Source: Octopus vulgaris (lineage: Eukaryota). Taken from it: DNA of 64,000 nt. A program made the position numbers and the translations under genes. The stretch spans positions 46,438,001-46,502,000 of the forward strand of contig OX597819.1 in assembly GCA_951406725.2 (NCBI GenBank). The letters are read 5' to 3'. Shown piece after piece: positions 2,955 to 60,430 of the stretch. The notes below the pieces were generated by a model, which ran no database searches, was not told where the DNA came from, and saw nothing but the letters and a program-made list of their open reading frames with translations. Position 1 is the stretch's first letter; every line of letters starts with the position of its first letter.

Positions 2955-3207
2955 TCTTTACGTGTTTCAGTCATCTAACCGCGGCCAACCTGGACCACCA
3001 CCTTGAAGAATTTTAAGCGATAGAATCGAATATAGTACTTATACTCTCAAGCCTGGCAATTATTGGCTCGAAATTCTTTTGCCGAACCGCTAAGTTACGG
3101 GGATCTAAACACTCCAACACCGTTGGTCTGTGTGTAGGATAAAAATAGACACAGACAGACACGTACACACACACATGCACACACATATATATGTATATAT
3201 TTATATT

Positions 3208-5827: not shown

Positions 5828-7140
5828 AGATCTGAGGCATTGATGTGAAAACCCGAAAAATACTAACAAGCACAAATAATTACCACATAAACAGAGACGT
5901 AGATCGTCTCTACCTAAAACGCAAACAAAGCGGCAGAGGCTTTACATCGAACCAAAATGCCTTTGAATGTCGTATCATATCCCTTCGGCAACATCTTTTA
6001 ACAACAAGTGTCGAGGTGCATCCCTTGACCAAGTTTGCGTACATAAAACTTCGAAGGCAGCTCCTTGAGCAACACTCTTTTCTGATAACCTACAATACAT
6101 GCCCAAAGAAGTCGCACGACTCTACCACGACATATCATCAGACATATCATCAAAGAAGTCTATCATGGAACATTAGCCGGATTACTACCTCCCATTTTGA
6201 GAGCTATGCGTTTCCAATCCAGGAAAGGAAATATCAACCAAGTACCTGATGTACAAAAGGGATAGAGATGCGGGAAAAACCGTAAAATGTGACAACCGAT
6301 GCAGACTCTGTGGAGTTCACACTGAAGATATCACCCACATCATAAGCAGTTGTCCGAAAATGTGATCAAAGTATTATCTACCGATGAGACATGACGCTAT
6401 AGCTAGGACACTCTATAATGAAATCCGTCGAGAGGATAATCCCGAGGACAAAGAAATAAAAACCTACAATATGGTAGAAGCCATAGCCACTCATAATGAA
6501 AAGGAATACTGGTACGAGTGAAGACCTCAATAAAATGCAAGCGCAACAGAGCTGAAATAATGATTTGAGATAGGGAAGAGAAACTATGCACAGTTGTGGA
6601 AATTAGTTACCAAGCGGATGTTAACGTAAAGCTGAAGATCTGTGAAAAGAGAACACCTACGCTGAACTAATGAGAAATCTGCAGTTACTTTATCCAGATT
6701 ATAATTTCAGGTTTATACCTCTAATTATCGGGGCCCTGTGATATATAACTAAGTACCAATCTTGAGAAATTAAGCTTCTCAAAACTAGAAAGGAGAAAAC
6801 TATTAGGTTGGTGTAAAATTATTGTGGCTTTTTTTCAATAAATTTAATTCAACAAAAACAATAACAACATTTAGCAAAAACATCTTTATATGATTATTCC
6901 GGGACATATTTACCATCTATTTCAATTACTGTTTGGCGTTTTGTTTAAATTTTTTGTTGAATAAAATTTATTGAAAAAGTGCCGCAATGATTATGGACCA
7001 ACCTAATAATTCGAAAACTACAAATCCAATCCATCACTGGAACTGTAAAAATCAGTAAAACTTTCCAGAAGTTTATCATTTAAATATATATGAGCATTTC
7101 TAGATATGTAATTATATGCACGAAAATACATACAAATATG
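5828..7140 (+). mobile_element. 5'-truncated R4/Dong-like non-LTR retrotransposon (RLE endonuclease type)
   Basis: DVDRLYLKRKQSGRG; zinc knuckle CRLCGVHTEDITHIISSC; MRHD; degenerate RPD...VVEIS nuclease motif; stops and frameshifts; flanked by (CATA)n. Confidence 0.85.
6803..7006. mobile_element. Mariner-derived MITE (MADE/Hsmar1-like TIRs)
   Basis: TIRs TTAGGTTGGTGTAAAATTATTGTGGC / GCCGCAATGATTATGGACCAACCTAA; TA duplication at 6801-6802 and 7007-7008; empty site visible in the paralogue near 5623. Confidence 0.9.
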
Positions 7141-7222
7141 CACATACATACATACATACATACATACATACATACATACATACATACATACATACATACA
7201 TACATAAATACATAATACAAAA

Positions 7223-7473
7223 ATAACCTGTTGTTCATGTTGAAATTCCAATGAAGGAACCTTGGATCTAGGTTAGAAACTGGTTCTTTCTATATTGGCA
7301 ATAAATCTTGAAATAAACTGAATAATGACATACATATATACAAACATACACACATACATACAAATATAACCTGTTGCTGATGTTGAAATTCCAATGAAGG
7401 AGCCTTGGATTTAGGTTAGAAACCGGTTCTTTGTCTATTGACAAGAAATCGTGAAATAAACTGAATATTGACA
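7223..7473 (+). repeat. Two tandem ~108-bp copies of a probable LINE 3' UTR end separated by (CATA)-like sequence
   Basis: 7223-7330 vs 7366-7473 align (ATAACCTGTTG...GAAATAAACTGAATA). Confidence 0.75.
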
Positions 7474-7870
7474 CACATAGACAGTAGTATAGCGATATTC
7501 TTGGCCTGATGATTAGATAAGTTGAGTACCCGTCATTGAGTAATTATTAAACCAGGGGATCAGGCAGTTAAGAAACTTATGTAGCCTGGATTTTACTTGT
7601 TACACTCGCTCAAATTAGATTTGTGTTTGTGCGTGCGTGCGTGCGTGTGTGTGTATGCGTATGTGTGTGTGTGTGTGTGTCTCATTGTGTATGTGTTTGT
7701 CCCTCATCACCGCTTGACAACCGGTGTTGGCGTGCATACGTTCCCACAACAGAGCGGGTCGGAAAAAGAATACAGTTCTATATTTAAGAGATGAGGAATC
7801 ATGTACATTATTCGCATTATCTACATTATTTACATTTGACGGATATTTGTCCTCCTCTTCTTTGCTGCTA

Positions 7871-7912
7871 ACGCAACGTTTCGGCTGATATACCCTTCAG
7901 CATTCATCAGGC
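7871..7912 (-). ncRNA. Minimal hammerhead motif (inverted arm)
   Basis: GC-CUGAUGA-AUGCUG...CAGCC-GAAAC-GUU-GCGU; stem I truncated at the inversion junction. Confidence 0.65.
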
Positions 7913-7952
7913 TATTAACCCCAAGATTCCGAGTTCGATTCCAGGCAGTGAC
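7910..7952 (+). pseudogene. tRNA-Asn-like 3' half (SINE-type head remnant)
   Basis: GGCTATTAACC-CCAAGATT-CCGA-GTTCGATT-CCAGG-CAGTGAC is colinear with the metazoan tRNA-Asn(GTT) 3' half (GGCTGTTAACC-GAAAGGTT-GGTG-GTTCGAGC-CCACC-CAGGGAC, recalled from memory); B box present. Confidence 0.55.
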
Positions 7953-7974
7953 CTAAATAATAATAATAATAATG

Positions 7975-8034
<60 letters not shown>

Positions 8035-8119
8035 TCAGACGTGTAGTCATGATGGGTATATTGGGCTTCGTATATTTTACCCCAGTGTCACTTTGATGGC
8101 ATGAACTGCTCTCTCACTC

Positions 8120-8192
<73 letters not shown>

Positions 8193-8240
8193 TCGAGAAA
8201 ATACCTTAGGAATGAGAACTTAGTTTAGAAATTTCCCCTA

Positions 8241-8286
8241 GACGCCTGATGAAGGCTGGAGGGTATATCAGCCGAAACGTTATGTT
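8241..8286 (+). ncRNA. Minimal hammerhead motif with intact core
   Basis: GACGC-CTGATGA-A-GGCTG-GAGGGTATAT-CAGCC-GAAAC-GTT-ATGTT; first stem I pair mismatched. Confidence 0.75.
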
Positions 8287-9158
8287 AACAACAAACAAGA
8301 AGAGGACAAATAGCCGACAAATGTAAATAATGTAAATAATGTCGGAAATGGAAATCGACAAAATAAGTACCAGGCTTACAGAATAAGTATTGTTGGAGGT
8401 GTCAATGCGTTTGACCAATGTTTTCCAAGGCAGTGTCAGAACATGGCCGCAGTCTAATGACTGAATCAGGTGAAAGATAAAGATAGATAATACCAACATA
8501 ACATAAGTATTAAATACTTTTGTTAGAAGCCCTCCGTAGAAAACAAAAAAATAAAAGTGAAATTCATAGAAAAGAATGTTGATAGACTGAGCTTAGCTCC
8601 AGCCTAATGGAGTGCACCACTCTTCTGTCCCTCACACTTATACAATGGGCCCGAGCCGAAACATAAGAATCGATAGATACAATAAGCAATAAATATAAAG
8701 GGAAGACATTAAAAGTTATTGGACTGAACATGGTGGATCCTGCCCTTTCATGTGGTCGGTTTTACGATGGTATTTCAAGTGTTGGAAAACTTGATGATTT
8801 CTTCAGCAGACCGCCGGAGGATAAAAGCAAGACTGGCTTATCGTGAATTTTTGGGATAGAACAAGCGATTGAGAAAATCCAGCAATAACTAGTTCTTTTG
8901 GTGAAGATAGGCAGAGATTTTATTTTATTAGTCAGTTGGTTTGTAATGTTTGTCTACTTCAAAAACTGCCCGTTGCTGCGATGTGCTACTTTGACACACT
9001 GGCCAGTCATGTAGTATACTATAACACACATATTTATGATTATCTGTTTTTTTCCCCTTTCTCTCGTTCTCTCTCGCCCCCTCTCTCTCTCTATCTCACT
9101 CTCTTTCTCTACACACACGTACATATATATATATTTATATATATATATATATATAAGA

Positions 9159-14204: not shown

Positions 14205-14440
14205 GTGTTTGTGTGTATGTGCGCGATTTTGCTTTTGTTCTTGTCTTCCATCACTGCTTGACAACGGGTGCAGGTTTGTTTATTTCCCAGCAACATAGGG
14301 GTTCGCCAAAAGGAGTCGATTGAATAAGTCCCAGATTTAAGAAAAGAATATCTACTAGGTTCGATTTGTTAAACTAAATTCTTCAAGACTGTGCTCCAGC
14401 ATGACCGCGGTCCAATGACTAAAAGAAGAAAAACATCAAA
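14205..14440 (+). mobile_element. SINE family B tail
   Basis: GCTTGACAAC...GAATAAGT...GTGCTCCAGCATGACCGCGGTCCAATGACT. Confidence 0.7.
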
Positions 14441-14627
14441 GATACACACAAACACTCACACACACACAGACTCAAACCTGCACACGCACATACACACACA
14501 CAAACATTTTCGCGTATATTTGTGTTGGTTTGTCTTTCCCCTGTGTGTGTATGTATATATATATATGTGTGTGTGTGTATGTTTGTGTGTGTGTGTGTCT
14601 GTTTGTTTGTGTGTGTGTGTGTCTGTT

Positions 14628-23689: not shown

Positions 23690-23714
23690 ATTATGACAAT
23701 TATTCGGTAGCCAT

Positions 23715-23775
23715 GATAAAGCTCCGAGTTTCGGATATCGGGGCGGAAACCTACGCCGCCATCTCTTCAGTTATC
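23715..23775 (-). ncRNA. Hammerhead-like motif (left arm)
   Basis: GAUAA-CUGAAGA-GAUGGCGG...CCGCC...AUCC-GAAAC-UCGGAG-CU-UUAUC; U16.1 changed to C. Confidence 0.55.
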
Positions 23776-23804
23776 CGGCCTTGATAGCATTTTTTCGATG
23801 TCCG

Positions 23805-23865
23805 AATAACTGAAGACATAGCGACGTGGGTTTCCGCCCTAACATCCGAAACTCGGAGTTTTATC
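23805..23865 (+). ncRNA. Hammerhead-like motif (right arm)
   Basis: AATAA-CTGAAGA...GAAAC-TCGGA-GTT-TTATC; core intact, stem II decayed. Confidence 0.55.
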
Positions 23866-23969
23866 ACGGCTACCGAATAATTGTCATATATTATATATCT
23901 ACAGATAAATTCGTCTATTTACATAATATCGAGGTCTCTTTCATTCTTTTATTGTCTTGGCATTTCTAT

Positions 23970-24427: not shown

Positions 24428-24612
24428 TTTGTGTGTGTGTTTGTTCCTGCACATCCCGACATCGTTTGACAACTGATGCTGCTGTGTTTACGTCCTCGTA
24501 ACATAGGGGTTCGGGGCAAGAGACCGACAGAAGAAGCGCCAAGTCCAGGGGTCATTTCTTCGACTGAAAGGCGGTGCTCCAGCATGGCCACAGTCAAACG
24601 ACTGAAACAAAT
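24428..24612 (+). mobile_element. SINE family B tail
   Basis: Matches 40400-40590. Confidence 0.75.
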
Positions 24613-24664
24613 AATAGAGGAATATACATATATATACACACACACACATATGTGTGTGTGTGTG

Positions 24665-31859: not shown

Positions 31860-33630
31860 TTGACTCTCGCTGTTCTATTTGCGGTTGTTCTTTACTTGAA
31901 AGCAGGCAATAACAAATCACCAACGGTTTCAAGTAGTGCCTTCTTCTGTGAGACAGACAATACTCTCCTTAGAATGCGAGATGTACCCAACAATGCTGTC
32001 TTCTGGATCACTTCCAGCCTGACAGCAGCTCCAATATTCTTAATAAGATTTTCAAAGCCTTTGGAAGCTGTTCTTAATGCTCCTTATACCACAGGTATCA
32101 CTATTATTTTCCTTATGCCCCGTAACTTTCCTATCTCGTCCCGCCGTGGCTAGTATTTCTCACTCTTTTTGAAACGCCTGGTATTGCTACATTTATTATG
32201 TTTGCTTCTTTTTCATCTTTATGGGTGATCACGATATCTGGCCGTCTCGCCTCTATGACTTAATCGCACTGTATGTTAAAATCCCAGAGTATTTTGTAAT
32301 GTTCGTTTGCCATTACTCGTCTGGCTTGTGTTCATACAATTGTTCGGCTCTCTCGAGGTTTGCTTTACCGCACAACAGCCAGTGGACATATCTGGCCACA
32401 TCGTCGTGTCTCCTTTTATATTCACGTTGTGCGTCAATATGGCTTATACTTTCTCCTTTCTCAGAGCACATCCTGCATTGTGGCGAGCCAGTGCCTTCAT
32501 CAATATGATATTTGGAGTAGTTTGTTCTGAGAGCCTGTTCTTGAGTGCTGCACACTAATGTCTCAGTGGGCTCTGAAGTCTCCTTTCTGTAGCCATTGCC
32601 AGGTTCTATTCCAATCAATCTCATCTTTATTCTTCAAGAACTGACGGGTCATTTTCTTGTCCGGCCAAATTTTCTCCATCAGCTCTCTCTGGTCTTTCTG
32701 GAATCGTGTTGGTTCTACGGTTTCGTTCACTTTAAGGTTTCCTGCATTTTTACTGCATCAATCATTTCTGTTTTACTCCCCTTGACACACCAAGCCAGGT
32801 TGTATTCCTCTTCCTTACACAACCTTCACAACACACCAATACCCACCCTCCTTTTCTCTTTACATACAATCTTGACACATCACTCTAGGAGTGTAGTTCC
32901 TTGTTCATTATCATTAATGTACATATTCTCCGGTCTGTCTCTTGTAATTCATTCTTCTTCCGAGATACTATTCCTACCCCATATCTCATCAAAGCAACCA
33001 TCCACATATTAATCGCTCTAATCTTATAGCGGCCATTTAGCATCGATTGAAGCACAAGCCGAGTTCTCCTCAATTATTCTTTCCTGTACATTTGTTTCAT
33101 CATGCGTTCATTCATCTTATTTCTTTCAGTGATACCCAGGTACTTATATCCTTCCTCTCCGACTTTCTTTATATTTTCGCCACTTTCCAGCTTGATACCA
33201 TGGCTTTTACTGATTTCCCCCTTTTTGAAAATCCTTACACCATATTTCTCGATCACAAATTCCATGCCAATATCTTTGCTAATCATCTGCACAGTTGTCG
33301 TCAAACTCTCAATTTCTTTTTCAGTCTTAGCAAATAGCATTAGGTCATCCATAAACCACAAGCTGTTTACTTTCACCCTGCCAAGCATGTATCCCACACG
33401 CGTCTTTCTTAAAACGCTGGTTAGTGGCAGTATATGCAGACAACAAATAGTAGAGGCGACAGATTGTCCCCTTAAAAGATTCTTCTTTCGATATTTACCT
33501 CTCCCAGCTTAACTCCTCATACTGTGAGTTCAGTTCGCCACGTTGCCATTCAGTTTTGTATTAACTTCAGGATATTGTTGGAGACCTAAAGCAGTTTAAG
33601 GCATTCAATGATCCACGTGTGTTGGACCAT
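31860..33630 (-). mobile_element. 5'-truncated R4/Dong-like non-LTR retrotransposon
   Basis: RT motifs F*GDNLSPL and FMDDLMLFAK...DIGMEF; QEQALRTN, CRMC..GESISHI, RRHD, RRPDIV nuclease motif; broken reading frame; TAA-type repeats at the ends. Confidence 0.9.
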
Positions 33631-33644
33631 GTCTGTTGTTGTTG

Positions 33645-33708
<64 letters not shown>

Positions 33709-33869
33709 TACTTTTTTTTCTTCTTCTTTCAAATTTGCTATCATTTCTTGCCGAGTGTCTTCCCGACTCCTAGGGCAAAGAAACTCATAGTATACATTGG
33801 TAGGCCATTAAACCAAACTCAGTAGTTCGTTCAATTTTTTTTTTTTTTTTTAAAGTTAAATTAAAATAC

Positions 33870-33970
33870 ATGAGCAGCAACAGTTCTCACATCGACAATG
33901 CTCTTCTCAATACGTGTGATGTACCAGTTAAGACAATCTTTTGCACTTCTTGCAGGGATGGTAAGCCAGG
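33870..33970 (-). mobile_element. R4/Dong-like 3' end fragment
   Basis: Translates PGLPSLQEVQKIVLTGTSHVLRRALSM*; abuts (TTA)n. Confidence 0.75.
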
Positions 33971-34168
<198 letters not shown>

Positions 34169-34174
34169 ATATAC

Positions 34175-34395
34175 ACTCAACAGATTAGACTGTTGGAAAA
34201 GAAAAGAATCCTAACATCGGGTTACAACATGTTGCCTTAGATGTCAAGAACCCTCCTATCTGGTTACAGCAAGTAATTTTCGATGCCAAGAACCCTCCTA
34301 AGTATCCTATCTGTCCTTAATAATACTGTTTTCTGCAGCTGCACTAAACTGGGTTTTATGCTTATTTCCTCTTTCCATCAGTTCAGATCTTTAGA
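34175..34395 (-). mobile_element. R4/Dong-like 3' end fragment
   Basis: Translates ISIKPSLVQLQKTVLLRTDRILRRVLGI; between TTA runs. Confidence 0.75.
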
Positions 34396-34407
34396 GATTA
34401 TTATTAT

Positions 34408-34620
34408 CAAGGCGGCGAGTTGGCAGAATCGTTAGCATGCCGTACAAAATGCTTAGCAGCATATTGTCCGTCCTTACGTTCTGAATTCAAATTCCGCCGT
34501 GGTTGACTTTGTCTTTCATCCTTTAGGGGTCGATAAATTAAGTACCAATGAAGCAATGGGGTCAGTGTAATCGACTAGTTTCCTCCCACAAAATTTCAGG
34601 CCTTGTGCCTATAGTAGAAA
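34408..34620 (+). mobile_element. SINE family C, full length, with (AAT)n tail
   Basis: AAGGCGGCGAGTTGGCAGAATCGTTAGC...TTCAAATTCCGCC...CCTTGTGCCTATAGTAGAAA. Confidence 0.85.
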
Positions 34621-34622
34621 TG

Positions 34623-34682
<60 letters not shown>

Positions 34683-34711
34683 GTAATAATAATAACAACA
34701 ACAACAACAAC

Positions 34712-34774
<63 letters not shown>

Positions 34775-40184: not shown

Positions 40185-40603
40185 TGTATGTTACGTAGCT
40201 TCCTTACGAACCACATGGTTCTGGGTTCAGTTTCACAGCGTGGCACCTTGGGCGAGTGTCTTCTACTATAGCCTAGAGCCGACCAAAGCCTTGTGAGCGG
40301 ATTGGGTAGGCGGAAACTGAAAGAAGCTCGTCGTATATATGTAGATACATACATATATATATATATATATGTATGTATGTGTGTGTATATGTTTGTGTGT
40401 CTATGTTTGTTCCCTCAACATCGCTTGACAACCGATGCTGGTGTGTTTACATGCCCATAACTTGGCAGATCGGCAAAGGAGACCGATAGAATAAGTACTG
40501 GGCTTACAAAGAATAAGTCCTGGGGATGATTTGCTCGATTAAAGGCGGTGCTCCAGTATGTCCACAGTCAAATGGCTGAAACAAATAAAAGAGTAAAAGA
40601 GTA
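40185..40603 (+). mobile_element. SINE family B, full length with internal (TA)/(TG) microsatellite
   Basis: Head with GGTTCAGT B-box-like motif, core CACCTTGGGCGAGTGTCTTCTACTATAGCC, tail ending AAAAGAGTAAAAGAGT. Confidence 0.85.
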
Positions 40604-45460: not shown

Positions 45461-47400
45461 CACTTGCAAGGCGGTGAGCTGGCAGAAGCGTTAGCACGCC
45501 GGGCGAAATGCTTAGCGGTATTTCGTCTGCCGTTACGTTGTGAGTTCAAATTCACTTGCAAGGCGGTGAGCTGGCAGAAGCGTTAGCACGCCGGGCGAAA
45601 TGCTTAGCGGTATTTCGTCTGCCGTTACGTTGTGAGTTCAAATTCCGCAGAGGTCGACTTTGCCTTTCATCCTTTCGGGGTCGATAAATTAAGTACCAGA
45701 TGAATACTGGGGTCGATGTAATCGACTAAATCCGTTTGTCTGTCCTTGTTTGTACTCTCTGTGTTGAGCCCCTTGTGGGTAGTAAAGAAATAGAAGTAGG
45801 TATTTTGTCTGCCGCTACGTTCAGAGTTCAAATTCCGCCGAGGTCGACTTTACCTTTCATCCTTTCGGGGTCGATAGAATAAGTACCAGTTACGCACTGG
45901 GGTAGATTTAATCGACTTAATCCGTTTGTCTGTCCTTGTTTGTCCCATCTATGTTTAGCCCCTTGTGGGCAATAAAAAATAAGAAACGTTAACACGCCGG
46001 GCGAAATGCTTAGCGGTATTTCGTCTGCGTTACGTTGTGAGTTCAAATTCCGCCGAGGTCGACTTTGCCTTTCATCCTTTCGGGGTCGATAAATTAGGTA
46101 CCAGTTACGCACTGGGGTCGATGTAATCGACTTAATACCTATGTCTGTCCTTGTTTGTCCCCTCTGTGTTTAGCCCCTTGTGGGTGGGAATAAAGAAATA
46201 GGTATTTCGTCTGCCGTTACGTTCTGAGTTCAAATTCCGCCGAGGTCGACTTTGCCTTTCATCCTTTCGGGGTCGATTAAATAAGTACCAGTTACGCACT
46301 GGGATCGATATAATCGACTTAATCCATTTGTCTATCCTTGTTTGTCCTTTCTGTGTTTAGCCGCTTGTGAGTAGTAAAGAAGTAGGTATTTCGTCTGTCT
46401 TTGTGTTCTGAGTTCAAATTCCGCCAAGGTCGACTTTGCCTTTTATCCTTTCGAGGTCGTACTAGGGTCTACATAATCGACTGGTCCCCTCCCTCAAAAT
46501 TTCGGGCATTGTGCCTAGAGTAGAAAAGAATATTTAACCCTTTGTTTAGGGCGGCGAGATTGTAGAATCGTTACTCTGCGTGGCAAAATGTTTAGCGGCA
46601 TTTCGCCCGTCTCTACGTTCTGAGTTCAAATTCCGCCGGAGTCGACTTTGCTTTTCATACTTTGGGGGTTAATAAAATAAGTACCGGTTGAACACTGGGG
46701 TTGATGTAATTGGAAACCAGTATTAACCTCTGAAAGGCAGTGAGATGGCAGAAATAGCGTACCGGAGAAAATTCTTAGCAACATTTCGTCCGACTTTAAA
46801 TTCTAAGTTCAAATTCTGCCGATCAAATTCTGCCTTTCGTCCTTTGGAGTTCGATAAAATAAGTACCAGATGAAAACTGGGATCAATGTAAACAACTCAC
46901 CACTACTCCGAATTTGCTGGCTTTGTGCCAAAATTCGAAACCAATCTTAAACGCCTGGTTAAGACGGTGAGCTGGCAGAATCGTTGGTACACCGGAAAAA
47001 ATTCTTAGCGGCATTTCGTCCGTCTTTACGTTCTGAGTTCAAATTCCACCGGGGTCGACTTTACTTTTCATATTTTAGGGGTCGATAAAATAAGTACCAG
47101 TTGAACACTGGGGTTGACGTAATTGACTAGTCAGCTCCCCTCCCCCGATATTACTGGCCTTGTGCTAGAATTTGAAACCAGTATAAACACCTGAAAAGCA
47201 GCGAGGTGGCAGAAACGTTAGCGTGCTCAGAGGAAAATGCTTAGCACTGTTTCATCCTACTTTACGTTCTGAGTTCAAATTCCGCCCAAATCTACTTTGC
47301 TATTCATCCTTTCGACATCGATAAAATATGTACCATTTGAGCACTGGTATCGATGTAATCGACTTACTCTGCCTACCCCAAAATTGAAATTAATATTTAA
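45461..47400 (+). mobile_element. Head-to-tail array of 10 SINE family C units
   Basis: Ten GTTCAAATT B-box motifs at ~45544, 45636, 45826, 46042, 46228, 46412, 46624, 46807, 47037, 47273, all in the same orientation. Confidence 0.9.
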
Positions 47401-56899: not shown

Positions 56900-57620
56900 C
56901 CATGCTTCTGCAATTCTGAGCATGAAAAATTGTTTCCGAAAGTCATGGGTGCTGTGTTGTTTTTGATTTTATAAGCGTGTCCATGAGTGTTTGTCACATG
57001 GAATTCAAAAAGTTACCCAAGGTTGTTGTTGTTGGAAATATGGTGGATATTCTTGTGGGTGTCAATCAAGACAGTTGCCAGACGTCTGGGCTTCAATGTA
57101 TCCAAGCCCAGGAATGCAAGACATTCAGAGTATGATAGATGTCTGACGGTGGGTATTCGCTTTGTTGCACATTTCTGAACAGTTTCCAGGAGATTTATAT
57201 GCTGAGAAAGTGAGGGGTTCCAGACTGGTGATGCAAATTCCAAGTGTGGACATACCATTGTTGTATACAATTTTAAATAGATAGCTGGAGAGTGGCTGAC
57301 AAAGGTCTTACTGAGTGATGCTAGCATCCCATCAGCCTTTTTGACATTCTTAGATATGTGGTTTGTCCAATGCAGATTCTTGTTTACAATAATACCCAGA
57401 ACATGTCCACCAGAAGACTTCTTGAGATAAGTGTTGCTGAAGGATTATGTAAAAGCTGGATTTTTCCTTCCAAAATGCATGGCGACACACTTGTCTACAG
57501 ATAGCTTGAGTTGACAGTCAGAGGTCCACTGCTGCAGTGTATCCAGATCTGATTGCAGGATATTATATGTTCTTTTTATTTCAAGGTACAGCTTGGTATC
57601 ATCTGCATATTTCAACACTA
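56900..57620 (-). pseudogene. CR1-like LINE reverse transcriptase C-terminal fragment
   Basis: LKYADDTKLY...LQSDLDTLQQW...KCVAMHFG; LYTTMVCPHLEFASPVWNP...LETVQKCATK. Confidence 0.9.
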
Positions 57621-59859: not shown

Positions 59860-60430
59860 AATTCGCTTGGATTATGCACGGGGCTGCGATACGAACAGAG
59901 AGTTTGGAGGTGAACCTATTGGCAAATGGCTGCATTTTGAGGCGTTCAAGTTCAGATTCCATTCTTCCGCCCAATTCCATGCTCGGTTCAGCGACAATTG
60001 GAGTATGTCGTATTGATTCCTAGGTGAAACAAGTTTGACGTCATCTGCAAATAGGAGAACTCTTCCATCAAGAAAATCTGACAGGTCGTTGATATAGAGA
60101 AGGAAAAGTATTGGCCCCAGCACCGACCCCTGGGGAACGCCGCTGCATGCATTCGTCTCCGCTGAGAGATCACCATTTATCTGCACCCAAAAAGTTCGAT
60201 AGCTAAGGAAGGAAGAAATCCACAAAGTCAACAATGGATGAATCTTGAATGCTCGAAGTTTGCGCAAGAGAAGTCAGTGATTAACGGAGTCAAATGCCTT
60301 TGCGAAGTCCAAAATTACCACGCCCACCAAGTCTTTTTCATCCATGGTCCTTGTAATCCATTCTTCAAGAAGGAGAAGATTTGTTAGGCAAGATCTTCAG
60401 GGTAGAAATCCATGCTGCGAGTCGGATATT
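59860..60430 (-). pseudogene. Well-preserved CR1/L2-like RT core fragment
   Basis: QHGFLP*RSCLTNLL...LDFAKAFDSVNH*LL...SGVPQGSVLGPILFLLYINDL...LFADDVKL...KCSHL; two in-frame TGA stops, no frameshift seen. Confidence 0.92.

Follow-up and report, generated by a model that had tools for sequence, protein, structure and literature searches.

SINEs are taught as parasites of LINEs. The insertion at positions 7771–8341 of the window (the whole 64-kb stretch of Octopus vulgaris DNA analysed here, AT-rich and microsatellite-rich animal DNA) joins a tRNA-like head to a hammerhead and a tail of the kind found in Penelope-like elements (PLEs), and raises the question whether a tRNA-headed element can be carried by PLEs. 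In our best reading, to which we give a probability of about 0.6, the insertion is a non-autonomous element with a tRNA head that depends on PLE proteins for its movement.

Structure of the insertion

All parts of the element, 571 bp in total, are enclosed by one TSD pair of 12 bp (7759–7770 on the left and 8342–8353 on the right, plus strand), in which 10 of 12 bases are identical; the empirical chance of such a pair is 0.0003 with 3 bases of slack. The flanks are the two parts of an older and unrelated SINE-like host repeat (7690–7770 and 8342–8495, plus strand), which are continuous in four uninterrupted copies within the window, at about 2955–3128, 14236–14444, 24436–24630, and 40404–40597. 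As a single TSD encloses all parts and the host repeat is unbroken in these four copies, 7771–8341 is one insertion. A preliminary description had placed the end of the element at 8342; it lies at 8341 instead, and 8342 opens the right TSD. As expected of a SINE, the insertion is short, non-coding and flanked by a TSD. Inspection of the ORFs of 7771–8341 revealed none with an RT plus GIY-YIG, and the insertion is not an autonomous PLE. No second copy of the head, the body, the hammerhead or the 86-bp segment described below was found within the 64-kb window. Two other origins were considered and rejected: an assembly artefact is ruled out by the 11% divergence of the two inverted arms and by the presence of the TSD, and a DNA transposon with terminal inverted repeats by the arms, which hold a hammerhead, are unequal and have breakpoints that differ among the copies.

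Further repeats are present in the window. A direct repeat precedes the locus (7215–7336 and 7358–7479; 122 nt, 89% identical, 143 apart), and about five related SINE-like copies form a cluster at 45681–47100, roughly 200–400 bp apart. LINE fragments at 33077–33508 and 59875–60273 (both minus strand) match Pfam RVT_1, and those at 5836–6246 (plus strand) and 57016–57444 (minus strand) gave no useful Pfam match; the fragment at 33077–33508 lies near long (ATT)n tracts at 33650–34770.

The inverted arms of the element, 7815–7912 and 8244–8341, are 98 nt long and 89% complementary. On the plus strand a minimal type I hammerhead (8241–8286, core 8246–8252 and 8274–8281, predicted cut after 8281) is followed by a proximal tail (8287–8341) which, judged by the arm alignment and by read ends, stops at the short class of 3′ ends. 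On the minus strand the hammerhead is 5′-truncated (core about 7875–7910) and is followed by its own proximal tail, both within 7815–7912. Beyond it lies a 44-nt tail extension (7771–7814, minus strand), which is found in the inverted copy only and is family sequence by read depth. The preliminary description had taken all of 7771–7912 for an inverted hammerhead plus tail, and this is right for 7815–7912, whereas 7771–7814 has no direct partner.

The core pattern CTGATGA..GAAACGT occurs at 8246–8280 on the plus strand and at 7876–7910 on the minus strand, that is twice in the window against 0.01 expected, a count reached in none of 100 shuffles of the window. In the direct hammerhead a bulged A on the 5′ side of stem II, the stem itself with five of five pairs and then GAA-ACGU-U can be recognized; the palindromic ACGU replaces stem III and the cut is predicted at GUU. 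The core is thus as intact as had been described, but stem I is damaged: four of its five pairs form and the core-adjacent pair is a C-A mismatch. In the inverted copy the junction cuts off stem I, and one pair of stem II is mismatched. The reads of the family restore a full 5-bp stem I (G>A at 7873 in 707 of 748 reads, together with the loose end behind 7911), and because the C-A mismatch is absent from them the direct hammerhead at 8241–8286 is likely impaired. Rfam scored neither a hammerhead nor a tRNA at the element. Free folding did not recover the hammerhead either (z −0.33 and −0.46), which is to be expected of a form without stem III.

Three structural marks of PLEs are therefore present, namely a type I hammerhead of the minimal form close to the 3′ end, an inverted 5′-truncated copy and a tail extension at one end only. 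Together with the TSD they make a PLE-type mobilisation of 7771–8341 well supported, in agreement with the PLE machinery that had been proposed for this insertion. An open frame of 42 codons on the minus strand (7771–7896) crosses hammerhead, tail and extension; by analogy with the anole element it may be the start of the ORF of a partner PLE. A second inverted pair is found at 23692–23778 and 23802–23888 (87 nt, 89%) beside a (TG)n tract. Its motif is different, CTGAAGA..GAAAC, hammerhead-like with a longer stem II and a short stem III, and this pair is likely the end-piece of another PLE family.

The tRNA-like head was recognized by motif match as the 3′ part of a tRNA-like sequence (7910–7953, plus strand) with a B box at 7933–7941; the B-box motif alone is weak, as it has eight matches in the window. 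By eye the head starts exactly at the inversion point, where it shares 2–3 nt with the inverted arm (7910–7912), and the head has no duplication of its own. The 5′ part of the head including the A box is missing from the window copy, and ARAGORN called no tRNA at the head. The preliminary description had suggested looking for an A box together with the head in other copies, and this box, TGGCGTAGTGG, is indeed seen in the loose ends before 7910 in all four sequencing runs that we aligned, about 33 nt from the B box. In the family both boxes are hence at tRNA spacing, and only the truncated window copy lacks the A box. The consensus of these loose ends spans 30 letters only; its GGGCAT pairs by hand with 7948–7953 at five of six positions, similar to an acceptor stem. 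These features make it likely that the family's own 5′ end is a head derived from a tRNA, with both boxes.

Of the tRNA-Asn-like 3′ half that had been described, the B box and the tRNA-like character hold. The assignment to Asn does not, as it depends on the look of the anticodon loop and thus on a base at 7915 which is private to the window copy: C replaces T in 629 of 648 and 669 of 681 RNA reads (about 97%) and in nearly all of the contig depth. An origin from tRNA-Asn was accordingly rejected.

Between head and hammerhead lie, all on the plus strand, an (AAT)n tract of 6 units, one GAT and 19 units (7956–8033), a segment of 86 bp (8034–8119), a further tract of (AAT)24 (8120–8191) and a body (8192–8240). 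The segment had been noticed before as an unrelated stretch of about 85 bp; it has no other match in the window, and within the element a T4 run on the sense strand occurs only there (8075–8078). It was probably inserted later into the AAT tract, and by analogy it is possibly the 3′ end of a TAA-targeting element of the Dong/R4 type. Passages in PMC3774820 place Dong elements in TAA repeats, and Dong-R4 accounts for 92.7 Mb of the O. vulgaris genome. The last 30 bases of the body are matched, with differences, by the consensus of the loose ends behind 7911, which run into sequence resembling 8211–8243 in all four runs. This family sequence contains a second, imperfect B-box-like motif just 5′ of the hammerhead, decayed in the window copy. 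With the simple repeat inside the element and a hammerhead plus PLE-type tail at its 3′ end, there is no LINE-derived and no A-rich or simple-repeat SINE end.

Other copies and wider searches

Part of the region 7700–8500 is matched by at least 22 public sequencing runs from 12 studies with six organism labels. Four of them, the RNA run X24 and the DNA runs X1, X9, and X6, were aligned on 7700–7985, with 7949–7985 skipped as repeat. The sequence is high-copy throughout 7771–7949 and the depth drops sharply at 7750–7769. Loose ends pile at 7815–7823 and at 7769–7771, which defines two classes of 3′ ends 44 nt apart, and in the three DNA runs the tail extension has 0.44–0.50 of the depth of the proximal tail.

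Among the 15 joints listed, out of 60, seven lead from the inverted tail (7791–7846) to the head (7910–7923), with seven different breakpoint pairs. None of these 15 joins tail and head in the opposite orientation (p 0.008 if both were equally frequent), and the others comprise one joint of host repeat and head, one of host repeat and hammerhead, and six inside tail and hammerhead. In a second table, of which 12 of 47 joints are listed, seven are tail-to-head and four of these carry A-box letters between their sides; in run X6 the depth of such joints is 44–55, equal to that of single-locus contigs there. In most joints the sides are shorter than 30 letters.

The depth of the head is 0.66, 0.82, and 1.11 times that of the hammerhead, and the depth of the tail is 2.7–4.5 times that of the head. 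As this exceeds the ratio of 2 expected from two tails per copy, many tails must be without a head. Assuming a genome of 2.8 Gb, as for O. vulgaris, we arrive at 4–6 × 10^4 heads and 1.5–1.9 × 10^5 tails, which are rough depth-based figures and not true counts. By rough arithmetic, random nesting of such numbers would yield about 150 head-in-tail joints per orientation. The number of joints therefore proves nothing, and only the orientation of seven to none, from a quarter of the joints, and the local anatomy argue against nesting. The head–tail link is not a one-off, since joints of inverted tail to head recur at different breakpoints. It had been reasoned that the tRNA-like part and the hammerhead tail might lie together here by chance nesting and be unlinked elsewhere; on the contrary, other copies join head to inverted tail at many breakpoints. 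The direct join of head, (AAT)n, and body was read in the window copy alone; the aligned reads end before the AAT tract.

In the RNA run both orientations are equally frequent and neither starts nor ends of reads pile up, as would be seen with a library that is not strand-specific or with copies that lie inside other transcripts. A joint 7812/7864 and loose ends at 7823 and 7908 reveal a few specific copies that are strongly represented in this run; they probably sit inside abundant host transcripts.

Pattern scans of viral contigs and of genome contigs yielded no copy of the element, and an autonomous PLE that could serve as its partner was likewise not found. Those of metagenome contigs yielded three loci, unrelated save for a similar minimal hammerhead. 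At one locus, L002 (581–740), such a hammerhead lies directly behind a short frame that may resemble the end of a PLE endonuclease. Copies annotated as spurious predicted proteins were also sought: the word index gave no match, and the full scan gave one unrelated bacterial repeat protein, a chance match. In a text search none of six short motifs of the element occurred in the main text of any paper.

Relation to known elements

The endonuclease-bearing PLEs (Penelope/Poseidon, Neptune and Nematis) share with the octopus element the minimal type I hammerhead, and according to passages in PMC4209133, PMC8557442, and PMC11167929 their hammerheads likewise carry a bulged base on the 5′ side of stem II, and palindromic positions stand where stem III would be. 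Such hammerheads occur as opposite-strand pairs 100–700 bp apart, as stated in part of PMC4209133. PLE insertions are characterized in sections of PMC8557442 as 5′-truncated, often with an adjacent inverted truncated copy, a tail of 30–40 bp at one end and the hammerhead in the pLTRs. The octopus insertion has the inverted 5′-truncated copy, the extension at one end and the two classes of 3′ ends in common with them, with an extension of 44 nt compared to the 30–40 quoted there. Unlike PLEs, the octopus element is without an ORF, and 5′ of its hammerhead it has a tRNA-like head, which includes the A and B boxes, followed by an (AAT)n spacer.

A precedent for the combination of a tRNA head with a hammerhead, which the preliminary description had not named, exists in the schistosome elements Sm-alpha and Sj-alpha. 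In the passages devoted to them in PMC6765202, PMC2770079, PMC8490949, and PMC4918200 they are short, non-coding and high-copy, and combine a type I hammerhead with a tRNA-derived part and what appears to be a Pol III promoter. The hammerhead of Sm-alpha is described as canonical and its tandem units are freed by cleavage, whereas the octopus copy is dispersed, PLE-shaped and has a minimal hammerhead; the descriptions of Sm-alpha in the consulted portions of PMC6765202, PMC2770079, and PMC4918200 mention neither an inverted copy nor a PLE tail.

Non-coding elements thought to use PLE proteins are also known. In the part of PMC8557442 that treats MRC1 of Chlamydomonas, this element is non-coding and no tRNA head is mentioned. 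The animal non-LTR retrozymes are non-coding and are thought, in passages of PMC7229834 and bioRxiv 10.64898/2026.07.22.740005, to depend on PLEs via a shared 3′ end or pLTR; PLEs have accordingly been proposed as their carriers, in the relevant passages of these two sources and of PMC7761336. Retrozymes are tandem and circle-forming as described there, in contrast to the single, non-tandem octopus copy. In the accessible text of bioRxiv 10.64898/2026.07.22.740005, a term search for 'tRNA', 'promoter' and 'polymerase III' found none of the three. Both the tRNA head with a hammerhead (Sm-alpha) and non-autonomous PLEs are thus known, and the part for which we found no paper is their union with the insertion marks of PLEs.

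From the side of the SINEs the 3′ end is the distinguishing feature, as it is of the PLE type and not of the LINE type, and the simple repeat is internal. Ohshima and Okada reportedly described the octopus tRNA-derived SINEs OR1, OR2, and OK in 1994. With the element presented here, tRNA-derived SINEs, among them octopus OR2 (named in PMC4758252), have in common the head with A and B boxes, the short body, the TSD and the very high copy number. Our search of the openly accessible literature found no description of a tRNA-headed element with the insertion marks of PLEs, and the consulted portions of the octopus repeat papers PMC13282606 (with supplement), PMC8967140, and PMC4758252 mention no such element. 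The family may already be catalogued in repeat databases such as Repbase, Dfam or SINEBase, under Penelope or as an unknown repeat.

Model of the insertion and alternatives

With its A and B boxes, and with no T4 run outside the 86-bp segment, the family is likely a template of RNA polymerase III, and the proteins of an autonomous PLE likely copy it. The Pol III transcript would run from the head through (AAT)n, body and hammerhead to the tail. Its 3′ part would be bound by a PLE protein, which would nick both target strands about 12 bases apart, and one cDNA would be begun on each strand, from a distal start site (giving the end at 7771) and from a proximal one (giving the end at 8341). Both cDNAs would stop early and be joined via the 2–3 shared bases at 7910–7912. 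The template would have to be the uncut RNA, because a cut after 8281 would leave head and tail on different molecules. The copied RNA likely included the head, since the inverted arm abuts it here and in other copies. In the sections of PMC11167929 on the anole PLE PAc, the protein nicks both strands with a preference for ATT, reverse transcription has two internal start sites bounding the tail, and hammerhead cleavage is unnecessary for insertion.

We consider it slightly better than an even bet that the family consists of true SINEs, which have a full Pol III promoter of the tRNA type and are parasites of PLEs and not of LINEs, that it has tens of thousands of copies in several related species, and that hammerhead and tail together are all that is needed in cis for an element to be mobilised by PLEs in vivo.

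The same parts could belong to two distinct families, one of them a tRNA SINE of the ordinary kind with (AAT)n as its end, the other made up of PLE end-pieces that lack a head. Chimeras of the two would then have arisen independently via PLE insertion into AAT tracts, nesting or template switching during PLE reverse transcription. The preference of PAc for cutting at ATT and the bias of PLEs towards microsatellites, as reported in passages of PMC11167929 and PMC8557442, would fit this idea, as do the excess of tails over heads and the abundance of both parts, which is enough for the chance nests estimated above. However, a PLE that lands in the AAT tract would place its inverted arm at the tract and not 5′ of the head, and one TSD surrounds all parts. 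Also the joints run seven to none in one direction among the 15 listed, at varied breakpoints, and the depths of head and hammerhead are close. We therefore think that separate families are unlikely, although template switching would be compatible with all of these points.

In another scenario the insertion is a truncated autonomous PLE, whose pseudo-LTR (3′ UTR) has captured a tRNA or SINE that now appears as the head, so that a SINE in its own right would not exist. According to part of PMC4209133, truncated PLEs account for most of the minimal hammerheads of animal genomes, and we could follow the family sequence 5′ of 7910 for 30 letters only. Moreover, the ORF of PAc begins inside the hammerhead and contains the tail, and the frame at 7771–7896 is open here. 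If the head were internal to a longer element, steady 5′ truncation should lower its depth, but the depth of the head is not much below that of the hammerhead. Furthermore, the letter before GGGCAT is C or T depending on the run, one joint begins at the third base of the head, and the two ends of the head can pair in the manner of an acceptor stem. These observations speak for a natural 5′ end where the tRNA starts. On these grounds a truncated PLE appears rather improbable.

Finally, a retrozyme of the Sm-alpha type, with tandem units that are cut by the hammerhead into monomers or circles and then retrotransposed, would share the tRNA, the Pol III promoter, the type I hammerhead and a similar unit size of about 300 nt, but is very improbable, as the window copy is non-tandem, a tail-to-head tandem joint is absent among the 15 listed of 60, the ends lie at two tail sites 60 and 104 nt past the cut site and not at it, and the hammerhead has the minimal PLE form and not the canonical one.

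Implications

If the reading as a tRNA-headed element moved by PLE proteins is true, a tRNA-headed SINE whose 3′ end and insertion scars are of the Penelope type would add a second class of carriers for SINEs. That PLEs carry short hammerhead elements has so far been argued mainly from co-occurrence and from the likeness of pLTRs, and such a SINE would support this idea directly from genomic sequence. The PLE insertion reaction itself is poorly understood, and the element would provide a natural minimal substrate for it, consisting of a body, hammerhead, and tail of about 150–200 nt with two mapped start sites. In the genome of O. vulgaris 6.83% is annotated as Penelope-like and 250 Mb as unclassified SINEs, and the family could explain part of both.
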